NCBI GenBank assembly: GCA_016291995.1
Contig: JAEEZV010000061.1
Coordinates: forward strand, 1-39,214
Direction: 5' to 3'
Source: Bacillales bacterium
GTDB taxonomy: Bacteria; Bacillota_I; Bacilli_A; RF39; UBA660
Length of the DNA: 39,214 nucleotides
Part shown: positions 7,025 through 39,214 of the stretch, in pieces
Position numbering within the stretch: position 1 is the first letter of the stretch
Layout of the letters: each line of letters opens with the position of its first letter
Notes under the pieces: generated by a model
Told to the model about the DNA's origin: nothing
Seen by the model: the letters and a program-made list of their open reading frames with translations, nothing else
Database searches by the model: none
Program-made: the position numbers and the translations under genes

Positions 7025-7957
7025 TTATTTTATAATTACGGTACCAGATTTTCCTGAAATAGCATCTTTGGCCTTCTCTAGTGAACCAATAATAGCTTTT
7101 TTTGTTGGACTAGACTTAACAAATTCGACACAAGCTTCAACCTTAGGTAACATACTACCCTTAGCAAATTGTTCTTCTTCCATGTATTTTTGTGCCTCTG
7201 CGATTGTCATTTTATCTAATTCTTTTTCATTTTCTGTATTAAAATTAATACATACCTTTGGAACGGCGGTCAAAATTAATAGCATATCGGCATCTATTTC
7301 CTTAGCAAGTAAAGCTGCTGAACGGTCTTTGTCTATTACCGCAGCAACACCACAAACTTTTTCGTTTTCCTTAATAACAGGAATACCTCCACCACCGACA
7401 GCAATTACTAGATTTCCATTATCAACAAGTAATTTGATAACTTTTTTCTCTAGAATATCTTTTGGTTGTGGAGAAGCTACGACACGACGGTATCCTCTAC
7501 CAGCATCTTCGACAAATGTATATCCTTTTTCCGCTACTATTATATCGGCTTCCTCTTTTGAATAAAATTTACCTATTGGTTTCGTCGGATTTTGAAATGC
7601 TTTATCCTCTTTATCTACAAGTACCTGTGTGACAACTGTTACACAGTCTTTTTTAATATGCTGATTACGAAGTTCGTTTTGTAAACATTGTTGAAGTTGA
7701 TAGCCAATATATCCTTGGCTCATACTTCCGCATTCAGCAAAAGGCATTGATGGCGTTTTAACCTCTCCGTTGGCAGCATAATCCATAGCAAGTAAAATTT
7801 GGCCTACTTGTGGACCATTACCATGTGTTAAAACAATTTCATTCCCTTCCTTGACAAGATCTACGATTATTTTAGAAACATTCTCTAAAAGATTTAATTG
7901 TTCTTCCGGTGTATTTCCTAAAGCATTACCTCCTAGAGCAATAACTATTTTACTCAT
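7025..7957 (-). CDS. arcC: carbamate kinase (last gene of the agmatine deiminase cluster)
   Basis: 310 aa with the MSKIVIALGGNALG N-terminus, HGNGPQVG and a GGGGIPV glycine loop. Confidence 0.9.
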   Translation of the reverse strand: MSKIVIALGGNALGNTPEEQLNLLENVSKIIVDLVKEGNEIVLTHGNGPQVGQILLAMDYAANGEVKTPSMPFAECGSMSQGYIGYQLQQCLQNELRNQHIKKDCVTVVTQVLVDKEDKAFQNPTKPIGKFYSKEEADIIVAEKGYTFVEDAGRGYRRVVASPQPKDILEKKVIKLLVDNGNLVIAVGGGGIPVIKENEKVCGVAAVIDKDRSAALLAKEIDADMLLILTAVPKVCINFNTENEKELDKMTIAEAQKYMEEEQFAKGSMLPKVEACVEFVKSSPTKKAIIGSLEKAKDAISGKSGTVIIK

Positions 7958-8027
7958 AATCCACCTACTTTCATTATCAGTATAACATAGTCATTTTTTA
8001 TGGTAAAGAAAAGAATTATGGTTTACA

Positions 8028-8056
8028 AAAAAAAGACTGTGTTTTTACACACAATC
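8028..8056 (-). terminator. intrinsic terminator after aguA
   Basis: The minus-strand RNA reads AGAUUGUG-UGUAAAAA-CACAGUCU followed by a U8 run. Confidence 0.55.
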
Positions 8057-9163
8057 TTATTTTCCATTTCCTTTAGGAACTTGTTGCGTAATACAATGAA
8101 TATTTCCACCACCTAGCAAGATTTCTCTTGCATAAACAGTTTCAATCTTTCTGCCTGGATAAAGTTTTTTAAGTAATCTAATAGCCTTCTTATCGTTAGG
8201 ATCACCAAATACTGGTAAAGCAACAAAACCATTACCTGTATAGTAATTAACGTAAGAACCAGCCATTCTATCTCCTTCCATTCTAGGAAGCGTTCCATCG
8301 ACAGAATCGACGCCTTCGCTTTCCTCCTTAGTAATAACTATTGGAGATGGACAAGATAATTTATGAATTACTAACTTTCTTCCTTTGGCATCTGTTTCCT
8401 TACTTAGATAATTATATGCCTCAATACTTCTTTCGTATTGTGGATCATCTTGATTATCTGTCCAAGCAAGAACAACTTCTCCTGGTTTAACGAAATTGCA
8501 CATATTATCAATATGACCATTCGTATCAATATCGCCATATACGCCTCTTGGAACCCATAAAACTTTTTCAACATTCAAATAGTCTTTTAATTTCTTTTCT
8601 ATTTGATCTTTTGTTAAATGTGGATTTCTATCTGGAGCTAATAAACATTCAGCAGTTACCATTGCTGTTCCTTCACCATCGACATGAATTGATCCTCCTT
8701 CTAGGATAAAATCACCAGCATCATAACTATCTACAGCCTCTAGTTCAGCTATTTTTCCACCAAGTTGATCATCAAAATCCCAAGGATAATATATACCTTC
8801 GATTAGTCCACCATATGCATTGAATCCCCAATCGACAGCACGTACTGTTCCTTTATCATTTACGACAAAAGAAGGTCCACTATCTCTAACCCAAGAATCA
8901 TTATTACTCATTTCGACAACTCTAACCTTAGGTCCTACCATATTTCTAGCATTTATATATTGATCTTGATTTACAAGAATCGTTATTGGTTCATACTTTG
9001 CAATTACATTAGCTACCTCTGCAAAAACCTTTTGTGCAGGCTTTGCTCCGTTACGCCAATTATCTGGTCTTTGTGGCCATATAATATATGTACCTGCATG
9101 TTTTTCAAACTCACCAGGCATTCTAAATCCATCATGTTTTGGAGTAGATTTTAATCTTTTCAT
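8057..9163 (-). CDS. aguA: agmatine deiminase
   Basis: 368 aa. N-terminal [18 protein letters not shown], and C-terminal [11 protein letters not shown] carrying the catalytic Cys. Confidence 0.92.
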
Positions 9164-9186
9164 TCTAACCTCCTTTATTCTTTTAT

Positions 9187-10593
9187 TTATTTACTCTCTT
9201 TTTCAACTTTTACTCTTGCAACTAAAATTTCTTCAATTATAAACGAAATAACTACACCAACTATAAGAGGTATATTATCTTGAATATACTCAAGACTAAA
9301 GTCACCAAATATAGTAAATACAACACCAAGAACTAAGATTATGAACGGTACTATTGCAAGTACTTTTATCATACCTTCGCCACCTGGTACTTTATAAACT
9401 CTTTTAGTTTTTGGATCTGTTTTTCTAAGTTTAAGGAATGCTAAGAACATTGGAATATATCCAACAAGTAATGTTATCCAACTTAAGCAGAAGAATAAAC
9501 TAAATCCTGCACCAAAGTCTTCGCTAATTAAGTTAGCAATTACCCCGCCAACAACAATTACTGATGCAACTACACCATTGATAATTGCTGCGTTTACTGG
9601 AACTCCTTCTTTGTTAACTTTAGAAAATCCTTTAGGTAATGCTCCATCATCTGCTGCATATTTTGCTACAGCATTAACACCGAATGACCAAGAAGCAATG
9701 TTTGCAATAAATGTATAAATAAACATTAAACCACAAACAATTAATAATACTTTAAGTAATGCTGGAGCAATTCCTACACTAACAAATAATGTATTTAAAA
9801 CTTCAACAACATTTTCAGGATCCATTTCTGCAACTACATCAGGATTTAATGCAATGTTAAATCCTGTAGCAGGTAAAACATAGAATACTGCCATTAAAAG
9901 TCCACCAAAAATTAAAGCCTTTGGTATATCTTTTTTAGGATTATCCATATCATCTACCCAAGTACCAACAACTTCAAATCCCATGAAATTGAATAGAATA
10001 ATTGAAATAAATGATAATGATCCTAGATCAAGTGATGGCAATAAATCAGATACACTAGTAATTGGATTTGCACTATGTCCAGTTTTAATAACTGAATAAA
10101 TACCTAAAATACCAATTCCTAGAAGTAATATAATTTTAAATGCTGTTCCTGTATTAACAACTTCTTTACTTTCTCCAATTCTCTTAGTACTCAAGAAAGT
10201 TACTAACCATACATAACCTAATTGAAGTAGTAATAATGCCCATATTGGTAAATCAATACTGAATATTCCTGCAACAATATCAGTTAATGCAACAGCAAGT
10301 GAAGCAATCCATAGTGGGAAGTTAACCCAATAGTTCCATGCTACACGTCCAGCCCATTTAGGACCAAATGCTTTTTTTACCCAATCGTATAATCCTCCCT
10401 CACTTGGATAACTTGTACCAAGTTCTGCAGTAATCATACCATATGGTAAACAAAAGCCAATTAATAGTAATGCCCACCAAAAATATTGCGTATTTCCAAT
10501 TGCTGCTGTTGGCATTACAGATTCACATACTAGAGTCAAACAAACAGTTCCTAGTATGGCATCAAACAATCTAAATTTTTTCTTTTTTTCCAT
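9187..10593 (-). CDS. aguD: APC-family amino acid permease, probable agmatine:putrescine antiporter
   Basis: 468 aa and about 12 hydrophobic segments. It sits between the carbamoyltransferase and agmatine deiminase genes, as in the enterococcal aguBDAC cluster. Confidence 0.7.
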
Positions 10594-10595
10594 AA

Positions 10596-11582
10596 TTACC
10601 TTCCTAAATTCCTATTACAAATTTCTGTTGTCTCTTCCTTCTTGTCCAAAAAGTATACAAGCAAGCCTCTCATAGCTGTCAAACGATTCTCAGCTTCATC
10701 AAAACAAATTGAAACTTTTGGATCGTCCATTACTTCGTCAGTTACCTCTTCACCTCTTGTAGCTGGTAAACAATGCATAAATTTAACATTTGGTGAACAT
10801 TTAGCTAACATTTCATGATTTACCTGATATTTTGGATAGAAAATTTTCATTCTCTCTTCTTTTGGAAGTTCTGATTCATATAATCCATACCATACATCAG
10901 TATAAACAAAATCCGCATCTTTCAATGCTTCGTCAGCATCGTCCGTAATTAAGAAACTACCACCACTGACCTTACAATTCTCTTCAAGGATCTTTAGATA
11001 ATCTCCCTTTAATTGGAAATCCTTAGGACCAAAGTGAACATAATGTCCACCCATTTTTGTAATCATCATACCTAGTGATGCACAAACTTGTGTGCAATCT
11101 CCGACAAACACAACCTTGCAATCTTCAATTGTCTTTCCCGCAGGCATATGTTCAAATATTGTGATAATATCTCCCATTTCCTGAGTTGGATGATTGTAAT
11201 CGCTCATTCCATTTAAAACTGGAACTGTCGAATATTTAGCAAGTTCAACTACTGTTTTATGCTGTTGAACACGAGCCATTATAATGTCAGTAAGTCTAGA
11301 TAACACAATTGAAGTATCTTTCATACTCTCATGCTTACCTAATTGTATCTGACCAGGTGCTAAATACTGTGCATGTCCGCCAAGTTGCGTCATCGCAGTT
11401 TCAAATGAAACCCTAGTTCTTGTAGATGATTGTTCAAAAATCATTCCTAATGTTTTATGATATAAAACATTAAGTGGATATCCAGCTTTAATATTCTTCT
11501 TTATAAGCAAACTTAAATTAAGAATATCTAAAAGCTCCTCCTTAGTAAAATCTTGTGTTGTAATATAATCTTTTTTTCGCAC
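10596..11582 (-). CDS. ptcA: putrescine carbamoyltransferase (OTC-family)
   Basis: 328 aa with a GTG start and AAAGGAG RBS. It has the STRTR and HCLPA motifs. [10 protein letters not shown] and the AgDI gene context favour putrescine over ornithine specificity. Confidence 0.8.
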
Positions 11583-14774: not shown

Positions 14775-16307
14775 TTATTTCTCTATTCTCATAAACAAAG
14801 GCTTTGCCTCATTAAGTTTAGTACCATTTTTGTATTTACCAAATTCTTTAGTACTATCATAATCGTTAATATCCGTATTTAATTGACTAAATATACTACT
14901 TGCTGTATCTGGTAAATATGCTTGTAAGTATACAGAGGCTATCCTAATAGATTCAACCAAATTATATAATACTGTAGCTAATCGATCCTTTTTCGTATCA
15001 GCTTTTGCTAATACCCATGGTTCTGTCTCATCAATATATTTATTACATCTACGATAAACATCTAAAATATTTTCAAGTGAATCAGCTATTCTAAATTTAG
15101 AAATATTATCTTCGACTTTACTATTCAAATCCAATACTTCTTTTATTAAATCTTTATCGATTTCTTCAGATACATTTCTATTTTCTATGATGCCATCAAA
15201 ATATTTATTAGCCATACCAATCGTTCTATTTACTAAATTACCTAAAACATTTGCTAAGTTAGTATTGATTGCATCAATTAATAAATCTTCTGTATATGTA
15301 CCATCTGAAGCAAAAGGCATTTCATGAATCATATAAAATCTCACTGCATCAACACCGTATTTATTTACTAAATCATCAGCATATACAATATTACCTTTTG
15401 ACTTGCTCATCTTATCAGTACCAAACAAAAGCCATGGATGACCAAATATACGTTTTGGCATTGGAAGACCCAACGCATGTAACATAATTGGCCAATAAAT
15501 AGTATGAAATCTAAGAATATCCTTACCAATTAAATGAACATCTGCTGGCCAATAGTCTTTAAAAGCTTGACTACTTTCACCATTAGGATTATAACCTAAA
15601 AAAGTAATATAATTTGACAGTGCATCAATCCAAACGTATATAACATGTTTATCATTAAAAGTTACTGGTACACCCCAATTAAAACTAGTTCTAGAAACAC
15701 ATAAATCTTGTAATCCTGGTTTAATAAAATTATTCATAATTTCATTTTTTCTAGATTCTGGTTCAATAAATCCTGGATGCTCTTCAATATATTCTTCTAA
15801 CCATTTTGAATATTTACTCATCTTAAAGAAATATGCCTCTTCACATTCTTCGTGAACTTCTCTTCCACAATCAGGACACTTTCCATCTACTAACTGCGAT
15901 TCTGTCCAAAATGATTCACATGGCGTACAATATAAACCTTTATATTTATCTAAATAAATATCACCTTGTTTATATAATTTTTCAAATATTTCTTGAACAA
16001 TCTTCTTATGTTCCTTATCAGTTGTTCTTACAAATTTTGTATAGCTAGTATTCATTACATCCCAAATCTTTTTAATTTCACTAGCCTTTTCATCAACATA
16101 TTCCTGTGGACTAATATTTGCTTCTTTTGCCTTACCTTCTATCTTTTGTCCATGTTCATCAGTACCAGTTTGAAAATATACATCATATCCACATAGTCTT
16201 TTATATCTTGCAATAACATCCGCTAAAACTACTTCATAAGTATTACCAATATGTGGCTTACTAGATGCATATGCTATTGCTGTACTAATATAATATTTTT
16301 TATCCAT
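14775..16307 (-). CDS. metG: methionyl-tRNA synthetase (short form, no C-terminal tRNA-binding domain)
   Basis: 510 aa with the HIGH-type motif KPHIGNTYE, KMSKS (DKMSKSKGN) and the zinc knuckle CPDCG. Confidence 0.95.
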   Translation of the reverse strand: MDKKYYISTAIAYASSKPHIGNTYEVVLADVIARYKRLCGYDVYFQTGTDEHGQKIEGKAKEANISPQEYVDEKASEIKKIWDVMNTSYTKFVRTTDKEHKKIVQEIFEKLYKQGDIYLDKYKGLYCTPCESFWTESQLVDGKCPDCGREVHEECEEAYFFKMSKYSKWLEEYIEEHPGFIEPESRKNEIMNNFIKPGLQDLCVSRTSFNWGVPVTFNDKHVIYVWIDALSNYITFLGYNPNGESSQAFKDYWPADVHLIGKDILRFHTIYWPIMLHALGLPMPKRIFGHPWLLFGTDKMSKSKGNIVYADDLVNKYGVDAVRFYMIHEMPFASDGTYTEDLLIDAINTNLANVLGNLVNRTIGMANKYFDGIIENRNVSEEIDKDLIKEVLDLNSKVEDNISKFRIADSLENILDVYRRCNKYIDETEPWVLAKADTKKDRLATVLYNLVESIRIASVYLQAYLPDTASSIFSQLNTDINDYDSTKEFGKYKNGTKLNEAKPLFMRIEK

Positions 16308-16321
16308 ATTATCCCTCCTAA

Positions 16322-16545
16322 ATAAAAAAATAAGCTAGCACACTAAGGACGACATTGCCGCGGTACCACCTTATTTTATAATCTAAAATTATACACTCAA
16401 AGCTATAACGTAACTACCGTTTAATAAATTAAATAGCTCCAGAACCATTTATAATAATCTCCTTATCTATTTACACCAACCATAGACTCTCTATAAATTA
16501 TAATTATTACTCATTCCTTCTTCGCATCAAAATCATATTAAGTAT
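16322..16545 (-). promoter_or_regulatory. T-box leader (Met specifier) upstream of metG
   Basis: The minus strand carries the T-box core AAGGTGGTACCGCGG (plus 16359-16370 = CGCGGTACCACC). Stem I elements present are AGAGAG, GGTTGGTGTAAA and the AGTA S-turn. A candidate AUG specifier lies at 16446-16448, and a U7 tract precedes the RBS. Confidence 0.75.
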
Positions 16546-27158: not shown

Positions 27159-27590
27159 CTATTTATTTCTTTTCTTTTCAAAAAAAATTTGTAATAATTT
27201 CTTATATTTTTCGACATTTTCACTATTAGTTAACTTAACAGCATTTAAATATTTCCCAGCATCAATGCAAACATTTGTTCTATCGCACAAATAATATACT
27301 TTTTTGATCCTACTTTCAATTATAGCTCCGGCGCACATCATACATGGCATTAAAGTAACATACATTTCACAATCATCTAGTCTCCAATCACCAATATGCT
27401 TACAAGCCATCTCAATTGCATCAATTTCAGCATGCCCAATAACAGATTTAAATTTATTTCTCGTATTAAATCCTTCGCCAATAATTTTTCCATTTTGAAC
27501 CACTATAGCACCAACAGGTATATCATCATTATCGAAAGCATATTTAGACAATTCAATTATTTTATCAACATATTTATTCATAACCATCAC
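27159..27590 (-). CDS. tadA: tRNA-specific adenosine-34 deaminase
   Basis: CDA zinc motifs GHAEIDAIE and PCMMCAGAI. The start is ambiguous (GTG 27590, ATG 27587 or ATG 27581) and none has an SD. Confidence 0.9.
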   Translation of the reverse strand: MMVMNKYVDKIIELSKYAFDNDDIPVGAIVVQNGKIIGEGFNTRNKFKSVIGHAEIDAIEMACKHIGDWRLDDCEMYVTLMPCMMCAGAIIESRIKKVYYLCDRTNVCIDAGKYLNAVKLTNSENVEKYKKLLQIFFEKKRNK

Positions 27591-27726
27591 AAATTAATTA
27601 TAACACATTCGTATATCATTATGCCATATAATATTACCTTACAGTTTTTAAATTTCTGCAACATCAATAACACAGTTTTTAAATTAAATATCAACTTGTT
27701 AACAATTATCAGCAATAACATCACAT

Positions 27727-27746
27727 AATGTTTCACGTGAAACATT
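27727..27746. promoter_or_regulatory. parS: parS site 1
   Basis: AATGTTTCACGTGAAACATT. The core TGTTTCACGTGAAACA is a perfect palindromic parS. Confidence 0.85.
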
Positions 27747-27770
27747 ATTGAATCAATATATTTCCTTTTT

Positions 27771-27790
27771 GATGTTTCACGTGGAACATT
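27771..27790. promoter_or_regulatory. parS: parS site 2
   Basis: GATGTTTCACGTGGAACATT. The reverse complement of the core is TGTTCCACGTGAAACA, the B. subtilis consensus site. Confidence 0.85.
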
Positions 27791-27825
27791 GAATAAATTT
27801 AAATAATAACAAAAAAAATTAAAGC

Positions 27826-27845
27826 AATGTTCCACGTGGAACATT
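27826..27845. promoter_or_regulatory. parS: parS site 3
   Basis: AATGTTCCACGTGGAACATT. Confidence 0.85.
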
Positions 27846-27937
27846 GCCTGTATATATAATTTTTTTTGGATACTACAATATATATCTAAATTTATTAACA
27901 ACAAATAATCTAACTAATACCTTATAGTAAATGAATC

Positions 27938-27957
27938 AATGTTTCACGTGAAACATT
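27938..27957. promoter_or_regulatory. parS: parS site 4
   Basis: AATGTTTCACGTGAAACATT, inside a perfect 30-bp palindrome GAATCAATGTTTCACGTGAAACATTGATTC (27933-27962). Confidence 0.85.
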
Positions 27958-27997
27958 GATTCAAAGTTAAATCTAATAGGATACATTTATATTTTTT

Positions 27998-28017
27998 AAT
28001 GTTCCACGTGGAACATT
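27998..28017. promoter_or_regulatory. parS: parS site 5
   Basis: AATGTTCCACGTGGAACATT, inside the 32-bp palindrome T6-AATGTTCCACGTGGAACATT-A6 (27992-28023). It lies directly 3' of the SRP RNA gene. Confidence 0.85.
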
Positions 28018-28021
28018 AAAA

Positions 28022-28098
28022 AATGTGCACACAATAATAGAAAGTTAAAGCTGCTATCTTCCGATCCTGACTTGATTCCTAACATTATTGTTGCACGT
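28022..28098 (-). ncRNA. ffs: small (4.5S-type) signal recognition particle RNA
   Basis: The minus strand reads GUGCAACAAUAAUGUUAGGAAUCAAGUCAGGAUCGGAAGAUAGCAGCUUUAACUUUCUAUUAUUGUGUGCAC. AGUCAGGAUC-GGAA-GAUAGCAGC matches the domain IV consensus (E. coli GUCAGGUCC-GGAA-GGAAGCAGC). The ends form a helix of about 14 bp. The location next to tadA/dnaX matches scr in B. subtilis. The exact ends are uncertain by a few nt. Confidence 0.8.
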
Positions 28099-28102
28099 AT
28101 TA

Positions 28103-28131
28103 ATTATATTACATATTATTAAAAATTGCAA
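28103..28131 (-). promoter_or_regulatory. sigma-A promoter of the SRP RNA gene
   Basis: The minus strand has TTGCAA (28131-28126), a 17-nt spacer and TATAAT (28108-28103). The first base of the SRP helix is about 7 nt downstream. Confidence 0.6.
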
Positions 28132-28140
28132 ATAATATCC

Positions 28141-28160
28141 AATGTTCCACGTGGAACATT
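28141..28160. promoter_or_regulatory. parS: parS site 6
   Basis: AATGTTCCACGTGGAACATT, 10 bp upstream of the -35 of the SRP RNA promoter. Confidence 0.85.
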
Positions 28161-28249
28161 GTTCAAATATATTAAAAAATAAATATATATAATATAAAAA
28201 TATAAACATCTTTTATATAATTAATTCTAATAATTAAAAATTTGATGAC

Positions 28250-28269
28250 AATGTTTCACGTGAAACATT
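28250..28269. promoter_or_regulatory. parS: parS site 7
   Basis: AATGTTTCACGTGAAACATT. Confidence 0.85.
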
Positions 28270-28371
28270 GAACCATTTGTTAACATCTATCAACAGATTT
28301 TGTTAATAACATTAAAAACTGTAACAATAATAATACAGTTTTTAAATTTCTGTAATTTTATGAAGTAGTAA

Positions 28372-28398
28372 TAAAAAAAGACATTAAACAATGTCTTT
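28372..28398 (-). terminator. intrinsic terminator after gyrA
   Basis: The minus strand reads TAA-AGACATT-GTTT-AATGTCT-TTTTTTT, and the hairpin starts at the stop codon. Confidence 0.65.
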
Positions 28399-31003
28399 AA
28401 TTATTATCGGTTACTTCAGTAGCTTGATTTATATCTTCATCAGAATCTTCTTTTTCCTTATCAACAATTGATATTGAACTAACCTTTTGACCTTCACGAA
28501 GATTAATTAATCTAACACCTTGAGTAACTCTACTCATTTCTGATATCTTATCAACAGCTAATCTAATAATTATTCCCTCATTAGTAACTATTATCAAATC
28601 TTCATCATTTTTAACAGTCTTAAATGATGTAATAATACCATTCTTATCAGTGATATTAAGAGTTTTAACACCTTTGCCGCCTCTATTTGTTAAACGATAC
28701 TCGTCAATTGGTGTTTTCTTTCCATAACCATTCTCTGTAACAACAAGTACTAATACATCCTTAGCAGCTATTTCCATACCTACTAGAATGCTATCATCCA
28801 ACGTAATACCTCTAACACCAGAAGCTCCTCTTCCCATAACCCTAACAAGTTTTTCTGGGAATCTAACCATTCTACCATTTGAAGATGCCATTAATATATC
28901 ATTTTCACCATTAGTATTCTTAACAGAGATTAACTCGTCATCTTCTTTAAGAGTAATAAATTTCTTACCATTAGATCTAATATTATAGAATTCACTAATG
29001 TCAGTACGTTTAATTAAACCACGTTTCGTAGCAAATACTAAATATTTCGTATCATCGCTCTTTGAACCATTTAATAATGATGTTACAAATTCACCAGCTT
29101 CAAGATTTAACAAATTAACAATTGGTAAACCTTTTGATTGCCTACTATATTCAGGAATTTCATATCCTTTAACACGATATACCTTACCCATATTTGTAAA
29201 GAATAATACATAATCATGTGTAGAACAATTAAGCATTCTATCAACAAAGTCTTCTTCATTAATAGTCATACCCTTAATACCTACTCCGCCACGATGCTGT
29301 GTTTTGTATGTATCAACAGGTAAACGTTTAATATAACCTTTATTTGTAAGTGTAATAACAATTCTCTCTTCAGGAATCAAACTTTCATCCTCAATATAAT
29401 CAATTGCTGTCATATCAATATGCGTTCTACGTTCATCAGCATATTTATTTTTAATTTCAAGTAATTCTTTCTTAATTATTTCAAGAACCTTTTGTTCAGA
29501 TGCCAATACTGATTTTAACTCTTCTATTTCAAGTAATAACTCCTTAAGTTCAGCTTCAATCTTATCCCTTTCTAGTCCAGTCAATCTACGTAATTTTAAT
29601 TCAAGAATAGCATCAGCTTGAACATCAGTTAACCCAAAACGATCCATTAATTTAGTTTTGGCTTCCTCATCAGTTTGAGCACCTCTAATAATCTTAATTA
29701 CTTCATCAATATGATCTTGAGCAATCTTATAACCTTCAAGTATATGAACTCTCTTTTCATCTCTATCTAAATCAAATTTAGTACGTCTAATAATAACAGT
29801 CTTTTGATGTTCAATATACTTAGCAATAATATCCTTAAGACCTAAAGTTCTAGGTGTTCCATTATCAATCATTAAAAATATAATACCATATTGAATTTGG
29901 AAATTCGTATGCTTATATAAATTATTTAATACAACTTGCGGATTAGCATCCCTTTTTAAAGTGATAGTAATCTTAACACCATCTTTTAGATCAGTATGAT
30001 AGTCAGAAATACCATCAATTATCTTATCTCTAACAAGTTCAGCAACCTTATTTTTTAGTTCCATTGTATTAACACCATATGGAACCTCAGTAATAACTAT
30101 TGTATTATGATTTTGATATTCTTCTATTTCAGCTCTACTTCTGATAGTAATGCTTCCTCTACCAGTATCATATGCCTTTTTAATGCCAGAATTTCCAAGA
30201 ATAATACCACCTGTAGGAAAATCTGGGCCTTTGATATATTCCATCAATCCAAGTGTATCAATTTCTGGATTATCAATATATGCCACACATCCATCTATTA
30301 CTTCACCTAAATTATGTGGTGGAATATTCGTAGCCATACCAACAGCTATACCCATAGTTCCATTAACTAAAATATTAGGAAATCTACTTGGAAGTACCGT
30401 TGGTTCATCTAATGTTTCATCAAAGTTTTTAGTCATATCAACAGTATTTTTTCTAATATCGGCAAGTAACTCTAATGATAATTTTGAAAGACGTGATTCA
30501 GTATAACGCATAGCTGCTGCTCCATCACCTTCAATATTACCAAAGTTACCATGACCATCAATAAGTAAATAACGTTGATTAAAATCTTGTGCCATTCTAA
30601 CCATGGCTTCATATATTGAAGAATCGCCATGTGGATGGTAATTACCCATAACCTCACCGACAGTTTTTGCTGACTTACGATGTGGTTTATCTGGAGTATA
30701 TCCTGAATTATACATACTCCATAAAATACGTCTATGAACAGGTTTTAAGCCATCTCTTAAATCTGGCAAAGCACGAGAAGTAATAACACTCATTGAATAC
30801 TCAAGAAATGATGTTTTTACTTCATCAACAATATTGTTCTCTGACAAACTATCTCTTTCATGAAAATATCCATTGAATTTATTACTATCACTAACCAACA
30901 TCTCTTCATCTTCTGAAGGAGTTTCTTCTTTTTGAGAAGTATCTTCAGTTCTTTCTAATAATTCTTCAATATCATCATCTAAATTTTGTTTTTCTTCGTC
31001 CAT
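28397..31003 (-). CDS. gyrA: DNA gyrase subunit A
   Basis: 868 aa with [26 protein letters not shown] and the active-site Tyr context AAMRYTE. A GGGGGTGA RBS precedes the first ATG. There is an extra acidic N-terminal segment of about 45 aa. Confidence 0.97.
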
Positions 31004-34158: not shown

Positions 34159-34608
34159 CTACTTTTCTAGACTTTTTCTTCGCTTATTTAATTCATAATC
34201 TAAAATTAAACTTCTAGTTACCTGATTATCGACTATATAATATGAAAAATCTATTGTTATTATCTTATTATTTTTGAAATAAAATATTGTTTTATTATCG
34301 TCTTTTTCATATTTTTCTAAATTATTAAAAGAAATCCATATATTATTCTTACTTCTAACTGATTTTAATGGAAAAAAGATAATATTTCTACTTTCTTCAA
34401 CAATTATTGGTGTTTTAGATGATAAATTAACAAGTCTGTTGGTAGTTTTTATTCTATCAGTAAGATTGCTACCAAAGAATTTACATGAATTATTAATAAT
34501 TTCTTTAGATGATATATTCTCAATATAATCCATATTTTCTGTAATTATCCTTGTATGACTATCGTCTATGCCTATCAACATGTCTGTTGATAAATCTATT
34601 TCATACAT
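34159..34608 (-). CDS. ComK-family transcription factor homologue
   Basis: SCKFFGSNL..R......V......TPIIVEES.NIIFFP..S.RS..N.WISFNN...........I.F.NNK...IDFSY....NQV.RS..L aligns with B. subtilis ComK (SCRFFGSS...KPPIMVDPSNQIFLFPT.S.R...C.WIS...ISYNSFENQVYRT). The start was set at MYEIDL with an AAGGGGGG RBS. Confidence 0.75.
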   Translation of the reverse strand: MYEIDLSTDMLIGIDDSHTRIITENMDYIENISSKEIINNSCKFFGSNLTDRIKTTNRLVNLSSKTPIIVEESRNIIFFPLKSVRSKNNIWISFNNLEKYEKDDNKTIFYFKNNKIITIDFSYYIVDNQVTRSLILDYELNKRRKSLEK

Positions 34609-34679
34609 AATATCCCCCCTTAACTCTTTAGTATGACACATGTCTTTGTCGAATTATGTAGAATTATGTCGGAGATATA

Positions 34680-35816: not shown

Positions 35817-35964
35817 ATTTTTTTCCTTCTTTCTTAATTGAATTATTATAACTATTATACTTGTTGATACTGTTGATAACTTACTTAAAATCTTTATTTT
35901 ATAACGTTTTATTTATCAACAAGGTATGTTGGTATAATAAGAAATAATTAACACCAATCAACAA
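35817..35964. other. oriC: oriC part 2 (dnaA-dnaN spacer): DnaA boxes plus an AT-rich candidate unwinding element
   Basis: TGTTGATAC (35862-35870), TGTTGATAA (35871-35879) and TTATCAACA (35913-35921) flank the 33-bp AT-rich tract CTTACTTAAAATCTTTATTTTATAACGTTTTAT. The layout resembles B. subtilis incC. Confidence 0.7.
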
Positions 35965-37335
35965 CTAACTCAAACTCCTTTTTAAATCTTTTATTACATT
36001 TCTTAAATCATCATTCTTAGTAATTTCTTCTCGTATTTTTTTATCAGCACTAATTATTGTAGAATGATTTCTTCCTCCAAAATAAGAACCAATCTTAGGA
36101 AAAGATTCTGTCGTTAATTCTCTACATAAGTAAATTGCTACTTGTCTAGGAAAATTAACAGAATTATTTCTATTTTTACCTTTCATTTGTTCAATACTAA
36201 TTTTGTAGTAGTCACATACAGCCCTTTGAATTCTTTGTACATCATTCTTATAAATACTCTTACCATGCAATTGATCTTTCAAAGCTTCAACTGCAATATC
36301 TAAAGTAACCTCACCATGATTAAACATAGATGAATATGCTAATACTCTTGTAATAGCACCTTCTAACTTTCTAATATCCGAATCAAAATTATTTGCAATA
36401 TATTCAATAACTTCTATTGGTATATCACTAGCTGTTTCCTTAAATGCTAACTTATTCTTAATAATATTTACTCTAAGATCATAATCAGGTGTTGCTATAT
36501 TTGCTGTAAGTCCCCAATTAAATCTAGTAATAAGTCTATTTTCAAATGAATTTAAGTCATCTACAGGTCTATCCGAAGCAATAATTATTTGTTTATTCGC
36601 ACTATGTAATTCATTAAATGTATTAAAAAACTCTTCTTGTCCTTTTGGTGCAGTACCTAAAAACTGAATATCATCAATCATCAGAACATCTACATTTCGA
36701 TATTTTTCTTTAAAAGCATCAATCTTATCAAAATTATTTTTATCACTATATCTAAATATTCTTGTATATTCATCAACAAATTTATCACTCGTTATATATA
36801 ATACTTTCTTATCAGAGTTCTTTATTATATAATTGCCTATCGCATGCATTAAATGAGTTTTACCAACACCACTCTCACCATATAATACTAAAGGATTATA
36901 TGATCCCGGAGCTTCAGCAGTCATTACCGCAGCCTTATAAGCAAAATTATTACTTTTACCAACAACAAATGTTTCAAAAGTATAATCAGGATTTAAATTA
37001 GCATTAAAAGGAGATTGTTTCTCATGAACTACTAAATCATTAAAAGTATCATTTTTATGTTTATTCTTTTCTAATTCCTGTATTTCACTTTCTAATATAA
37101 TATTGAATGTAATATTATCGTTGGTAACTTTCGCCATAGCCTCATTCATCATATTTAGATAAAATTCTTCAATATGTTTTTTTATAAATTCTTGATTGAC
37201 GGTAATGGTAAGTACATTATTTTCCAAAGAATAAAATTTTGTATCCTCTTCATTAAACCACGTATCGAAAGACATATTAGTCAGTTCGTTTTTTAAGTTG
37301 TCTAAAAATTTATTCCATAGTTCTCTACCATTCAT
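35965..37335 (-). CDS. dnaA: chromosomal replication initiator DnaA
   Basis: 456 aa with Walker A GESGVGKTHLMHAIGN, Walker B LMIDDIQF and a C-terminal HTH (FGGRNHSTI). Confidence 0.97.
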   Translation of the reverse strand: MNGRELWNKFLDNLKNELTNMSFDTWFNEEDTKFYSLENNVLTITVNQEFIKKHIEEFYLNMMNEAMAKVTNDNITFNIILESEIQELEKNKHKNDTFNDLVVHEKQSPFNANLNPDYTFETFVVGKSNNFAYKAAVMTAEAPGSYNPLVLYGESGVGKTHLMHAIGNYIIKNSDKKVLYITSDKFVDEYTRIFRYSDKNNFDKIDAFKEKYRNVDVLMIDDIQFLGTAPKGQEEFFNTFNELHSANKQIIIASDRPVDDLNSFENRLITRFNWGLTANIATPDYDLRVNIIKNKLAFKETASDIPIEVIEYIANNFDSDIRKLEGAITRVLAYSSMFNHGEVTLDIAVEALKDQLHGKSIYKNDVQRIQRAVCDYYKISIEQMKGKNRNNSVNFPRQVAIYLCRELTTESFPKIGSYFGGRNHSTIISADKKIREEITKNDDLRNVIKDLKRSLS

Positions 37336-37379
37336 AACCGCTACCTCACATTCAGTTCTAACTTTATTTTAACACATTA

Positions 37380-37636
37380 AAAAGCTTTGTCTACAACAAT
37401 TTTCACTATCAACAAGTTGTAAACAAGTTATCAACAACTTTTCAACAATATAATACCATATAAAATAAGGATTTAAAAGAGTTTTCAACAATTTTTAATA
37501 CAAATATTTCCCTGTTAATAAAATTATCTACATTTGTTATAACATGTTGAAAAATAAGGGTTTTGTTGATAATTACAATAAACACTTAAAAATAACAAAA
37601 AAAGGTATATATTTATCAACAACATCTGTGGAAAAT
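37380..37636. other. oriC: oriC part 1: DnaA-box cluster upstream of dnaA
   Basis: Boxes 1-2 mismatches from TTATCCACA are: CTATCAACA 37406, TTATCAACA 37428, TTTTCAACA 37439 and 37482, TGTTGAAAA 37545, TGTTGATAA 37564, TTATCAACA 37613 and TGTGGAAAA 37627. Confidence 0.75.
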
Positions 37637-37666
37637 AAAACCCGGGAAATAATTTCCCGGGAAATA
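37632..37666 (-). terminator. intrinsic terminator of the HerA-like gene, containing an exact ATTTCCCGGGAAAT palindrome
   Basis: The minus strand reads CCCGGGAAA-TTA-TTTCCCGGG followed by TTTTATTTT, 4 nt after the TAG stop. See the findings for the Noc-binding-site match. Confidence 0.7.
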
Positions 37667-37669
37667 TAA

Positions 37670-39214
37670 CTATTGTCCTTTCCACTCCACAATCCACTTA
37701 TCATAGATAGATGCATTCGCACTTTGAGGTTCAGGATTAGGCATTTGCATTTTTACAATCATTGGTATTCTCATCATTCTACCAAACGCAACACAAGTTC
37801 CTGACTGTAATGATTTTTGTTTTTCAATTACATCTGAACTAATGTTAGGAACCATCTTCCTAATATATTCCAAATCTGTTGGATGATTCAACTTAAAGAT
37901 AATAAAGTTAGAACACTGTGACAAAACTGTTTCAGACAATTCGGTAGGTCTCTGAGTAATCAAATCCATAATTACACCAAATTTTCTACCTTCCTTAGCA
38001 ATTCTTTCAAAAATATTATAACCTAAAATATCAACATCTTTATCTTTTTGAACATATCTATGCGCCTCTTCCAACATTATATGGATAGGCATAGAACCTC
38101 TAGGTTGAAGTCTTTTAGAAAACTTAAATAGTATTCTAGATATTACTTTAACAATACTTTTAGCAAGTCTATCATCAACCTCTTCCAAAACAAAGTTAAC
38201 TATTTGTACTCTACCATTAGCTGGTGTTACTAATAATGAATTAATATATTGTTCTGGTGTAATAAAACTAGGAACATCAAAAAATTCTTTATTAGAACTA
38301 TTATTGATTGAATGTAATTTAACTTTTAATGCTATCGCTTCACTATATGATTTTTCATTCATAAGTAGTCCTTCACTTATCAAAGTAAAATTAAGAGCTA
38401 CTTCCAACTGATCTAAATTGAAATATAAAGGTACATAATCTTCTTTCCATACAGTATTGTTATCAACAAAACTCTGGATATATTTTGTAACCAATATTCT
38501 TTCAACAAAATCACCATGATTATCAATATCAAAACATTTTCTAAATTCTCTTGTATATCCTATACCAGGAACTTCAACATCCAAATTTAGTTCATTGGTA
38601 TAACAATCAGTCAAAATATTAAATATTTGGTCTCTTATTTTAGCAGCTACCTGATTAGAATATAAAACAGCAATAATAGCCTTAGCAATTAAATGATTTT
38701 TATATCTAATAGATTCTTCATCGTTTCTTGCAAATATAGATACGAAACTAAGCATCTTTTCAATAATATTAATTTGAAAATAATCAGTTATATCTAAAAT
38801 ATTTGCATAATCATCAACATCCATAATCCATAAAGGAATTTTAATTGGATTTCCTGAAGGATCAGATTTATCTGTCGTATATAATTTATAATTAAAATTA
38901 GAATTTAAACTATGAATATCTCTAAATGCTGCATCATATTCACTTGTATTATTAAATATAAAGAAATTACTATTAAATGGAATTTTATCTTTCATATTGA
39001 AAAAGTTTTGAACAATTCTAGCAACACCACATGTTTTACCAGAACCAGTATTACCAAATATAGCCATATGGTTACTATACATTTCATTTATATTAACCTT
39101 AACTGGATAATCATTATATAATGGACTAACACCAAGAATCATCGTTTTATTATCGTTATCACCAACGAGTTCTCCAAGTTCTTGCTGATTAATAATTCTA
39201 ATCGTGGCATTTAA
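37670..39214 (-). CDS. HerA/DUF87-family (FtsK-HerA superfamily) ATPase, N-terminus off the right edge
   Basis: The frame is open from base 39214 (LNATIRIINQQELGELVGDNDNKT precedes the track's Met). It has Walker A GNTGSGKT and Walker B IHIMLEEAHRY. AKEGRKFGVIMDLITQRPTELSETVLSQCSNFIIFKLNHPTD is the classic COG0433/HerA C-terminal signature. Confidence 0.8.
   Translation of the reverse strand, partial: LNATIRIINQQELGELVGDNDNKTMILGVSPLYNDYPVKVNINEMYSNHMAIFGNTGSGKTCGVARIVQNFFNMKDKIPFNSNFFIFNNTSEYDAAFRDIHSLNSNFNYKLYTTDKSDPSGNPIKIPLWIMDVDDYANILDITDYFQINIIEKMLSFVSIFARNDEESIRYKNHLIAKAIIAVLYSNQVAAKIRDQIFNILTDCYTNELNLDVEVPGIGYTREFRKCFDIDNHGDFVERILVTKYIQSFVDNNTVWKEDYVPLYFNLDQLEVALNFTLISEGLLMNEKSYSEAIALKVKLHSINNSSNKEFFDVPSFITPEQYINSLLVTPANGRVQIVNFVLEEVDDRLAKSIVKVISRILFKFSKRLQPRGSMPIHIMLEEAHRYVQKDKDVDILGYNIFERIAKEGRKFGVIMDLITQRPTELSETVLSQCSNFIIFKLNHPTDLEYIRKMVPNISSDVIEKQKSLQSGTCVAFGRMMRIPMIVKMQMPNPEPQSANASIYDKWIVEWKGQ

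Follow-up and report, generated by a model that had tools for sequence, protein, structure and literature searches.

A compact origin-proximal block of seven canonical parS sites around ffs as the probable chromosomal centromere of a Bacillales bacterium

The stretch of DNA analysed here, referred to as the window, comprises the 39,214 nucleotides (nt) of contig JAEEZV010000061.1 from the Bacillales bacterium assembly GCA_016291995.1, and the element under study is a block of seven parS sites, the palindromes recognized by the partition protein ParB (Spo0J), located between gyrA and a tadA-like gene in the neighbourhood of the presumed replication origin (oriC). A preliminary description made from the letters of the window had reported seven consensus copies at this place, and both their positions and their spacings are corroborated here, all seven 16-bp cores showing 0 mismatches. 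The consensus palindrome TGTTNCACGTGNAACA has exactly seven matches in the window, starting at 27729, 27773, 27828, 27940, 28000, 28143, and 28252, versus a chance expectation of 0.04, and this count was reached by 0 of 100 shuffles of the window. When the search was relaxed to three mismatches, the window scan yielded only three weak additional matches, all of them away from the array, and no further parS with up to two mismatches was found in the 55.9 kb around oriC that are covered by the window together with 8.6 kb and 8.1 kb of flanking contig. Neighbouring sites are spaced by 44, 55, 112, 60, 143, and 109 bp, the cores together spanning positions 27729-28267, and the same array with identical spacing is present in an independent assembly (contig L085, 99.94% identical to the window over 13 kb). 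The flanks of the copies, in AT-rich DNA, are 62-85% alike; the conservation of seven perfect cores despite such diverged flanks suggests that each copy is under selection.

Individual sites differ in the symmetry that surrounds the core. parS1 (AATGTTTCACGTGAAACATT, 27727-27746) has a perfectly palindromic core at 27729-27744 without mismatches to the consensus, while the core of parS2 (GATGTTTCACGTGGAACATT, 27771-27790, core 27773-27788) reads in reverse complement as TGTTCCACGTGAAACA, which we take to be identical to the site within spo0J of Bacillus subtilis. parS3 (AATGTTCCACGTGGAACATT, 27826-27845) lies inside a 24-bp perfect palindrome followed by a T-run on the minus strand, producing a terminator-like match at 27849-27822 and a hairpin of -10 kcal/mol when folded as single-stranded DNA. 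parS4 (core 27940-27955) is embedded in a 32-bp perfect palindrome (27932-27963) that adds eight symmetric bp to each arm and folds at -12.9 kcal/mol, and parS5 (core 28000-28015) in one of 34 bp (27991-28024), the right arm of which contains the U-tract of the ffs terminator. Thus, the two long palindromes first noticed are indeed there, with each being 2 bp longer than the 30 and 32 bp initially given. Finally, parS6 (28141-28160, core 28143-28158) and parS7 (28250-28269, core 28252-28267) are, like the other five, exact matches to the consensus and have no assigned strand.

The array had been described as filling one intergenic spacer, a view that has to be abandoned, as the gene for the small bacterial signal recognition particle (SRP) RNA, ffs, sits inside the region (28011-28105, minus strand; Rfam RF00169, 55.5 bits versus a gathering score of 40) and splits it into five parS between ffs and tadA and two between gyrA and ffs. 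A sigma-70-type promoter is predicted for ffs at 28103-28131 on the minus strand, with a -35 box TTGCAA at 28131-28126, a 17-bp spacer, and a -10 box TATAAT at 28108-28103, a layout also visible in aligned relatives. The mature RNA probably extends from ~28098, after the -10 box, to ~28018, where a U6 tract (A6 on the plus strand at 28018-28023) comes after the SRP helix. The end of the parS6 16-mer is found 11 bp upstream of the -35 box. Low-scoring Rfam matches over the array (rox2 and several miRNA families) were discarded as artefacts of the paired parS palindromes.

Read along the minus strand, the order of elements is gyrA, a hairpin, parS7, parS6, ffs, parS5 directly after the U-tract, parS4, parS3, parS2, parS1, and the tadA-like gene. 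gyrA (28397-31003, minus strand; Pfam DNA_topoisoIV plus six DNA_gyraseA_C repeats) is the upstream neighbour, and the hairpin with a T-run at its stop codon (28369-28406, minus strand), a probable gyrA terminator, delimits the array region on the right. The downstream neighbour is the gene of a tadA-like tRNA adenosine deaminase assigned by Pfam (27159-27590, minus strand), followed by dnaX, ybaB, recR, holB, and further genes, and upstream of gyrA lie gyrB, recF, a ComK homologue, dnaN, and dnaA. Both edges of the array share short motifs, with TACAGTTTTTAAATTTCTG, ACAGTTTTTAAAT, and TTGTTAACAA in the left flank (27640-27714) and TTGTTAACA, TTAAAAACTGT, and again TACAGTTTTTAAATTTCTG in the right one (28277-28355). 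ACAGTTTTTAAAT has three matches at the array edges versus 0.56 expected and none elsewhere in the window, and the enrichment of TGTTAACAA at both edges is marginal (three matches versus 0.99 expected, with 9 of 100 shuffles also reaching three). A TTAAAAACTGTAA-like motif was also observed at the array edges of two relatives (L001 and L002).

The array lies within the origin domain. DnaA-box-like 9-mers (one-mismatch boxes, mostly TTATCAACA) occur in the dnaA-dnaN spacer (35871 and 35913) and upstream of dnaA (37428-37635), and this region around dnaA (35871-37635) is presumed to form a bipartite oriC. Distances from the array amount to ~7.6 kb for the boxes of the dnaA-dnaN spacer (35871-35921) and to ~9.2-9.4 kb for those upstream of dnaA. 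To the right of the window, an 8.1-kb extension carries rpmH, rnpA, yidC, jag, mnmE, mnmG, and rsmG, followed by a second gene of the ParB family. Between rpmH and dnaA there is also a gene for a HerA/DUF87-type ATPase of 587 aa (window 37670-39214, minus strand; complete in L085 at 7903-9666) that points in the same direction as dnaA and borders immediately on the oriC region.

The partition genes are found at the opposite end of the window. parA/soj occupies positions 1-807, 27 kb from the array as stated in the preliminary description, and is on the minus strand; this copy lacks the last two codons and the stop codon, the full ParA of 271 aa being encoded on contigs L081 and L082. It displays a KGGVGKTT motif and matches the Pfam families ParA, CbiA, and AAA_31. 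parB had been considered absent from the window, which has to be corrected, its start codon (20-18, minus strand) and first six codons (MEQKNK, 20-1) being present and the remainder lying beyond the left edge. On L081 and L082, which match the left end of the window with 100% identity, parB overlaps parA directly downstream of it and encodes a protein of 293 aa with ParB_N and HTH_ParB domains that aligns with B. subtilis Spo0J (6sdk) with an E-value of 5e-63. Its motifs GERRVRA, ENLQREDL, GKSR, and MGHAR include R173 and G201 (Caulobacter numbering), two residues reported as invariant among parS-specific ParB proteins and replaced in Noc by Q and R, respectively (Jalal et al. 2020; PMC7383237). 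The search for a ParB homologue with suitable helix-turn-helix (HTH) residues thus ended in a canonical one. No parS was found within parB.

On the contrary, the ParB-family gene beside rsmG (L085 1-1396, minus strand; ~8-9.5 kb to the right of the right window end) encodes an HTH of the form GKSQ...NK...EKHAR. Since the corresponding residues Q173, K179, and K201 are Noc-type, this paralogue should not be the reader of parS. Its product has at least 465 aa, including a C-terminal tail of more than 250 aa that is rich in proline and of low complexity, and is much longer than B. subtilis Noc. As far as can be judged from these residues, the genome encodes one parS-type reader plus a separate Noc-type reader. 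No ParB or Noc paralogue was detected by tblastn beside gyrA in the gyrA loci of 80 relatives.

These relatives were obtained by a GyrA-based search of one-genome-per-species collections (80 loci with GyrA 65-91% identical, all from uncultured gut or rumen Bacilli) and, together with the window, make up a set of 81 genomes with ~20 kb per genome and 1.53 Mb in total. parS sites were counted with up to one mismatch, these counts being lower bounds where contigs end inside arrays (e.g., L006, L007, L016, and L018). The comparison of the gyrA-tadA spacer shows that 76 of the 81 genomes have parS immediately after the 3' end of gyrA, with 1-11 copies each (mean 4.3) and a largest span of 1.8 kb, and at least two copies in 69 of these 76. 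No parS was found outside the region downstream of gyrA in the ~20 kb inspected per genome, that is, in 1.5 Mb from the 80 relatives, so that the 20-mer, which also lacks additional copies in the 55.9 kb of the genome itself, is not a dispersed element at these scales. One of four exact consensus cores is retained by 274 of 323 sites sampled in the 81 genomes (85%), and the consensus of the lineage is wider than 16 bp, (C/T)AATGTTyCACGTGrAACATT(G), with the A and T flanking the core conserved at ~95%.

The association with ffs is likewise shared. Through its domain-IV motif GTCAGGnnCGGAAGnnAGCAGC, ffs was recognized at the equivalent place in 61 of the 81 genomes, and 35 of these 61 have a parS at a distance of 76-90 nt on the upstream side of that motif, i.e., against the ffs promoter, its end being 1-2 bp from the -35 box in one group and ~10-11 bp in another, as in the window; in 12 genomes parS is also found after the ffs terminator. 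The copy beside the ffs promoter therefore appears to be a common anchor across the lineage. An apparent helical phasing of parS relative to this promoter (period ~9.25-9.5 bp) is not claimed, being significant only when every genome is counted as independent, with p = 0.39-0.76 after collapsing repeated values. In about ten relatives, Tandem Repeats Finder detects arrays with one parS per unit, periods of 36-332 bp, and 84-97% matches, examples with regular units being L018 (39-bp period, eight copies) and L029 (36-bp period, six copies). No tandem repeat array is detected by the same program in the window, where the spacing is irregular (44-143 bp). As read from these repeats, copy number turns over fast through tandem duplication of parS-bearing units.

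Symmetry beyond the 16-mer, which had been noted for two copies in the window, is real and lineage-wide. Among 273 exact sites from the 81 genomes, 114 exhibit at least four further symmetric bp per arm versus 16 expected, and 30 exhibit at least eight versus 0.5 expected, under a null model that retains position-specific composition. The flank sequences of these extended palindromes differ between sites, and a weaker but significant excess is also found around parS in other phyla (L087-L206). As single-stranded DNA, the parS copies of the window have folding energies of -7 to -13 kcal/mol, although no significant hairpin is formed by the asymmetric parS2, and three of the seven palindromes have a terminator-like score on the minus strand versus 0.2 expected; in a logo of the 323 sites, no T-tract follows the palindrome consistently. 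The initial idea of cruciform formation, considered here as selection for cruciform DNA, is not needed, as the extended symmetry comes with unrelated flanks and is found in other phyla too; moreover, ParB binds duplex parS, and a cruciform would therefore destroy the binding site. As a guess, extended palindromy might be a mutational by-product, namely the template-switch correction of quasi-palindromes nucleated by the perfect core.

Noc-binding sites (NBS, ATTTCCCGGGAAAT) were also mapped. None is present in the array of the window, in which the only perfect match lies at 37652-37665. In the 1.5 Mb compared there are 86 perfect NBS versus ~0.003 by a rough composition-based estimate of chance, and 35 of the 86 fall inside parS array zones, which represent 4.5% of the sequence, a 15-fold enrichment. 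NBS and parS are interleaved in 18 of the 76 parS-bearing genomes (e.g., L002, L003, L009-L011, L013, L015, L017, L023, L033, L038, L040, and L075), frequently at fixed offsets of ~30 or 60 bp, as if NBS-parS modules had been duplicated together. Regarding the single NBS of the window, it is preceded by a partial copy, AACCCGGGAAAT, and lies in the presumed oriC, with the HerA-like gene on one side and the DnaA boxes upstream of dnaA on the other; several relatives show an NBS at a roughly equivalent distance upstream of gyrA.

As separate observations, 54 of 120 viral contigs with parS pairs correspond to ~11.8-kb phi29-like podoviruses with two canonical parS in each inverted terminal repeat. 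These linear contigs (L214 and 53 similar IMG/VR contigs, e.g., L217, L224, and L233) code for a PolB of the protein-primed type, an ATPase of the gp16 type, a connector, and a phi29-type capsid protein; homologues of ParA or ParB were not detected. Their parS pairs agree with what is known of phi29, which exploits the Spo0J of its host (PMC2731898).

The gene content is that of a sporulating Firmicute, a trait shared with B. subtilis, with spoVT, spoVG, yabP, yabQ, and yabG. A ComK-family gene (Pfam PF06338, E = 2e-30; 34159-34641, minus strand) stands between dnaN and recF, a position presumably taken in B. subtilis by the gene of a small RNA-binding protein. A T-box leader (RF00230, 103.5 bits; 16342-16531, minus strand) precedes a methionyl-tRNA synthetase gene (14775-16307), and the Pfam domains encoded at 7025-11582 on the minus strand (carbamoyltransferase, amino-acid permease, agmatine-deiminase-family enzyme, and carbamate-kinase-like protein) suggest an agmatine deiminase pathway cluster, which lies amid origin-proximal housekeeping and sporulation genes (yabG, veg, spoVG, yabP, yabQ, and divIC).

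The combination of a consensus palindrome in seven of seven sites, a cognate ParB, a Walker-type ParA, location in the origin domain, and conservation at the orthologous locus points to the block being the centromere of the chromosome, with seven canonical parS near the origin that are read by the genome's own ParB, a reading to which we assign a probability of roughly 0.82. The compact, origin-proximal nucleation centre for ParB envisaged in the preliminary description is therewith supported, both by the cognate ParB and by the 20-mer not being dispersed. In the mechanism proposed, dimers of the genome's own Spo0J-type ParB would bind the seven sites, close as CTP-bound clamps, and slide onto flanking DNA, by analogy with other ParB proteins for which clamp closure and sliding have been demonstrated (PMC7053999; PMC7333895). 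With seven sites in 0.54 kb, the array would act as one high-flux loading point, and a single ParB-DNA partition complex would form over gyrA, ffs, tadA, and dnaX, and the ParA (Soj) encoded at a distance of 27 kb would move it. ParB at parS recruits the structural maintenance of chromosomes complex, SMC (PMC7333895), and the partition complex would most likely double as the single entry point of SMC-ScpAB, in line with the proposal that collisions between SMC complexes are avoided when strong parS are clustered (PMC8357415). As a secondary possibility, ParB at parS6 might modulate transcription of ffs, an effect at which the conserved adjacency of parS to the ffs promoter hints.

Several aspects weigh against this reading: (i) ParB occupancy, CTP-dependent spreading, and SMC loading at the array are inferred from analogy with studied systems; (ii) the par operon is not adjacent to the sites; (iii) no smc or scpAB genes were seen in the 56 kb around the array; (iv) exclusivity of the sites is established for 55.9 kb, and parS farther from oriC may exist; and (v) the seven copies need not all matter, as a single parS suffices for segregation in Pseudomonas aeruginosa and the other model species tested (PMC7022226).

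This last point leads to the possibility that one site works, probably the copy at the ffs promoter, the other six having arisen by tandem duplication and template switching driven by the palindromes and being nearly neutral, without added function. Copy numbers of 1-11 among relatives with no fixed value, the recent tandem amplifications visible in some of them, and the extended palindromes, which point to an active mutational process at the sites, agree with it, as does the sufficiency of one parS. Neutral copies should nonetheless decay, and 85% of the sampled sites keep an exact consensus core, the seven cores of the window are perfect though their flanks have diverged to near-random similarity, and 69 of the 76 parS-bearing genomes retain at least two copies, which makes this explanation unlikely. 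A role mainly in transcription, with parS6-bound ParB regulating ffs, the palindromes serving as terminators or insulators between gyrA, ffs, and tadA, and segregation being secondary, might account for the 11 bp between parS6 and the -35 box, for the promoter-adjacent copies in 35 of 61 genomes, some 1-2 bp from that box, and for the three terminator-like palindromes where 0.2 were expected, and has a precedent in the repression by P. aeruginosa ParB of genes downstream of the promoter-located parS3 and parS4 (PMC7022226). We consider it very unlikely, nevertheless, given that the logo of 323 sites has no consistent T-tract, that sites far from any promoter are also present within the arrays, that the 9-10 bp phasing to the promoter loses its significance when repeated values are collapsed, and that partition is the simplest explanation for an exact universal parS along with a canonical ParA-ParB pair.

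Still less credit can be given to explanations in which the block is not a parS array of the chromosome. The 20-mer is palindromic, intergenic, multi-copy, and hairpin-forming, as would be expected from a dispersed repeat of the repetitive extragenic palindrome (REP) or miniature inverted-repeat transposable element (MITE) type resembling parS by chance, but its absence elsewhere in 55.9 kb of the genome and outside the gyrA-downstream region in 1.5 Mb from 80 relatives, and a core that equals the universal parS exactly, render such an origin extremely improbable. The possibility that an integrated plasmid or phage contributed the block as its centromere, or that mobile elements use it as a decoy, comes close to being negligible: tandem centromere repeats are typical of plasmids (PMC5450999) and the phi29-like phages carry parS pairs, but the neighbours of the array are core genes in conserved order (dnaA, dnaN, recF, gyrB, gyrA, ffs, tadA, dnaX, ybaB, and recR), no mobile-element genes are found nearby, the block is not bracketed by integrase, replication, or conjugation genes or by att sites, and 76 of 81 genomes have the array at the same locus.

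A more elaborate scheme would build on the centromere reading. Because tandem parS modules adjoin the strong SRP-RNA promoter, with NBS at ~30 or 60 bp offsets in about a quarter of the species, the gyrA-ffs-tadA spacer might be a dedicated, fast-evolving loading hub for two CTP-switch clamps, in which the loading of ParB and of the Noc-like paralogue with its long proline-rich tail would be physically coupled to ffs transcription, ParB would regulate or insulate ffs, and the ParB and SMC flux onto small genomes would be adjusted through copy number (1-11). We regard this scheme as speculative and unlikely.

Taken as a centromere, the array bears on two questions formulated by Jalal and Le (2020), namely why parS copy number varies if one site suffices and what drives clustering (PMC7333895). 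The lineage offers a natural comparative series for them, with an orthologous locus of 1-11 perfect sites in 76 of 81 genomes, and its visible tandem amplifications record array growth. Contrasting it with the scattered layout of B. subtilis could show whether SMC collisions are avoided by tight clustering, as has been suggested (PMC8357415). In addition, the origin region of fragmented metagenome-assembled genomes in this group can be recognized by the gyrA-parS-ffs signature, and such arrays may help to explain contigs that end within or just after them.

Regarding how unusual the array is, clustered parS in plasmids and dispersed parS in chromosomes constitute the textbook contrast (PMC5450999), and the preliminary description had taken the tight block as a departure from the chromosomal layout. 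This was overstated. Most bacteria cluster parS within 5-40 kb, scattering being limited to a few lineages, Bacilli among them (Anchimiuk et al. 2021; PMC8357415), and close pairs and arrays are also common in metagenomes. A metagenome scan for two canonical parS 15-45 bp apart gave at least 120 loci with 27-74% GC, of which at least 11 have four or more parS in 600 bp. Dense arrays are found in unrelated contigs of 35%, 55%, and 64% GC, with 15 sites in ~1 kb beside dnaA in L149 (1044-2027), seven upstream of parA in L164 (446-1027), and seven in L189 (761-1038), and L178 carries six sites. Among the matches listed, most close pairs adjoin parA, rsmG, or mnmG, and about five loci have a gyrA/tadA context, four of which (L097, L141, L144, and L161) are low-GC relatives.

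Among the closest references is the Spo0J/Soj/parS system of B. subtilis, which shares with the present one the identical 16-bp palindrome TGTTNCACGTGNAACA, sites near the origin, a Soj-type ParA encoded immediately upstream of an overlapping parB, and a ParB with the same CTP-binding and DNA-reading motifs. One of the B. subtilis parS sites presumably lies inside spo0J. Here, on the contrary, seven parS are packed in 0.54 kb, with none in parB and the par operon 27 kb away. In B. subtilis the sites occur singly and are spread out, the strong ones over ~60 kb and others hundreds of kb away (PMC8357415). The parS1-4 sites of P. aeruginosa and the clusters of Corynebacterium glutamicum resemble the array in having several close canonical sites and one ParB complex near oriC (PMC7022226; PMC8357415), described chromosomal clusters usually extending over 5-40 kb (PMC8357415) as opposed to the 0.54 kb observed here. 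The parS pairs of metagenomic rsmG-parA spacers are likewise closely spaced and canonical, and differ in being mostly beside parA, rsmG, or mnmG.

In the sopC centromere of the F plasmid, tandem 43-bp units each contain a 16-bp inverted repeat. Arrays of this type are similar in grouping many ParB-type palindromes within a few hundred bp, and some relatives (L018 and L029) are equally regular. The resemblance to a plasmid centromere suggested at first for the window itself is, however, not maintained: its sites are universal chromosomal parS in a core-gene context of the chromosome, their spacing is irregular and forms no tandem array, and the parAB genes are 27 kb off instead of adjacent. Phage phi29, with five parS and host Spo0J exploited for entrapment in the spore (PMC2731898), also has canonical copies close together, but these are phage-borne and dependent on host ParB, whereas those described here belong to the host's own chromosome. 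As for the Noc/NBS system, its reader is also of the ParB/CTP-clamp family, and the seven sites of the window differ from its targets in being parS and not ATTTCCCGGGAAAT. Altogether, sub-kilobase chromosomal parS arrays are widespread, in several phyla, and what is particular to this one is its gyrA-ffs-tadA location uncoupled from parAB, its high copy number, and its fast turnover within a lineage of the Bacilli.

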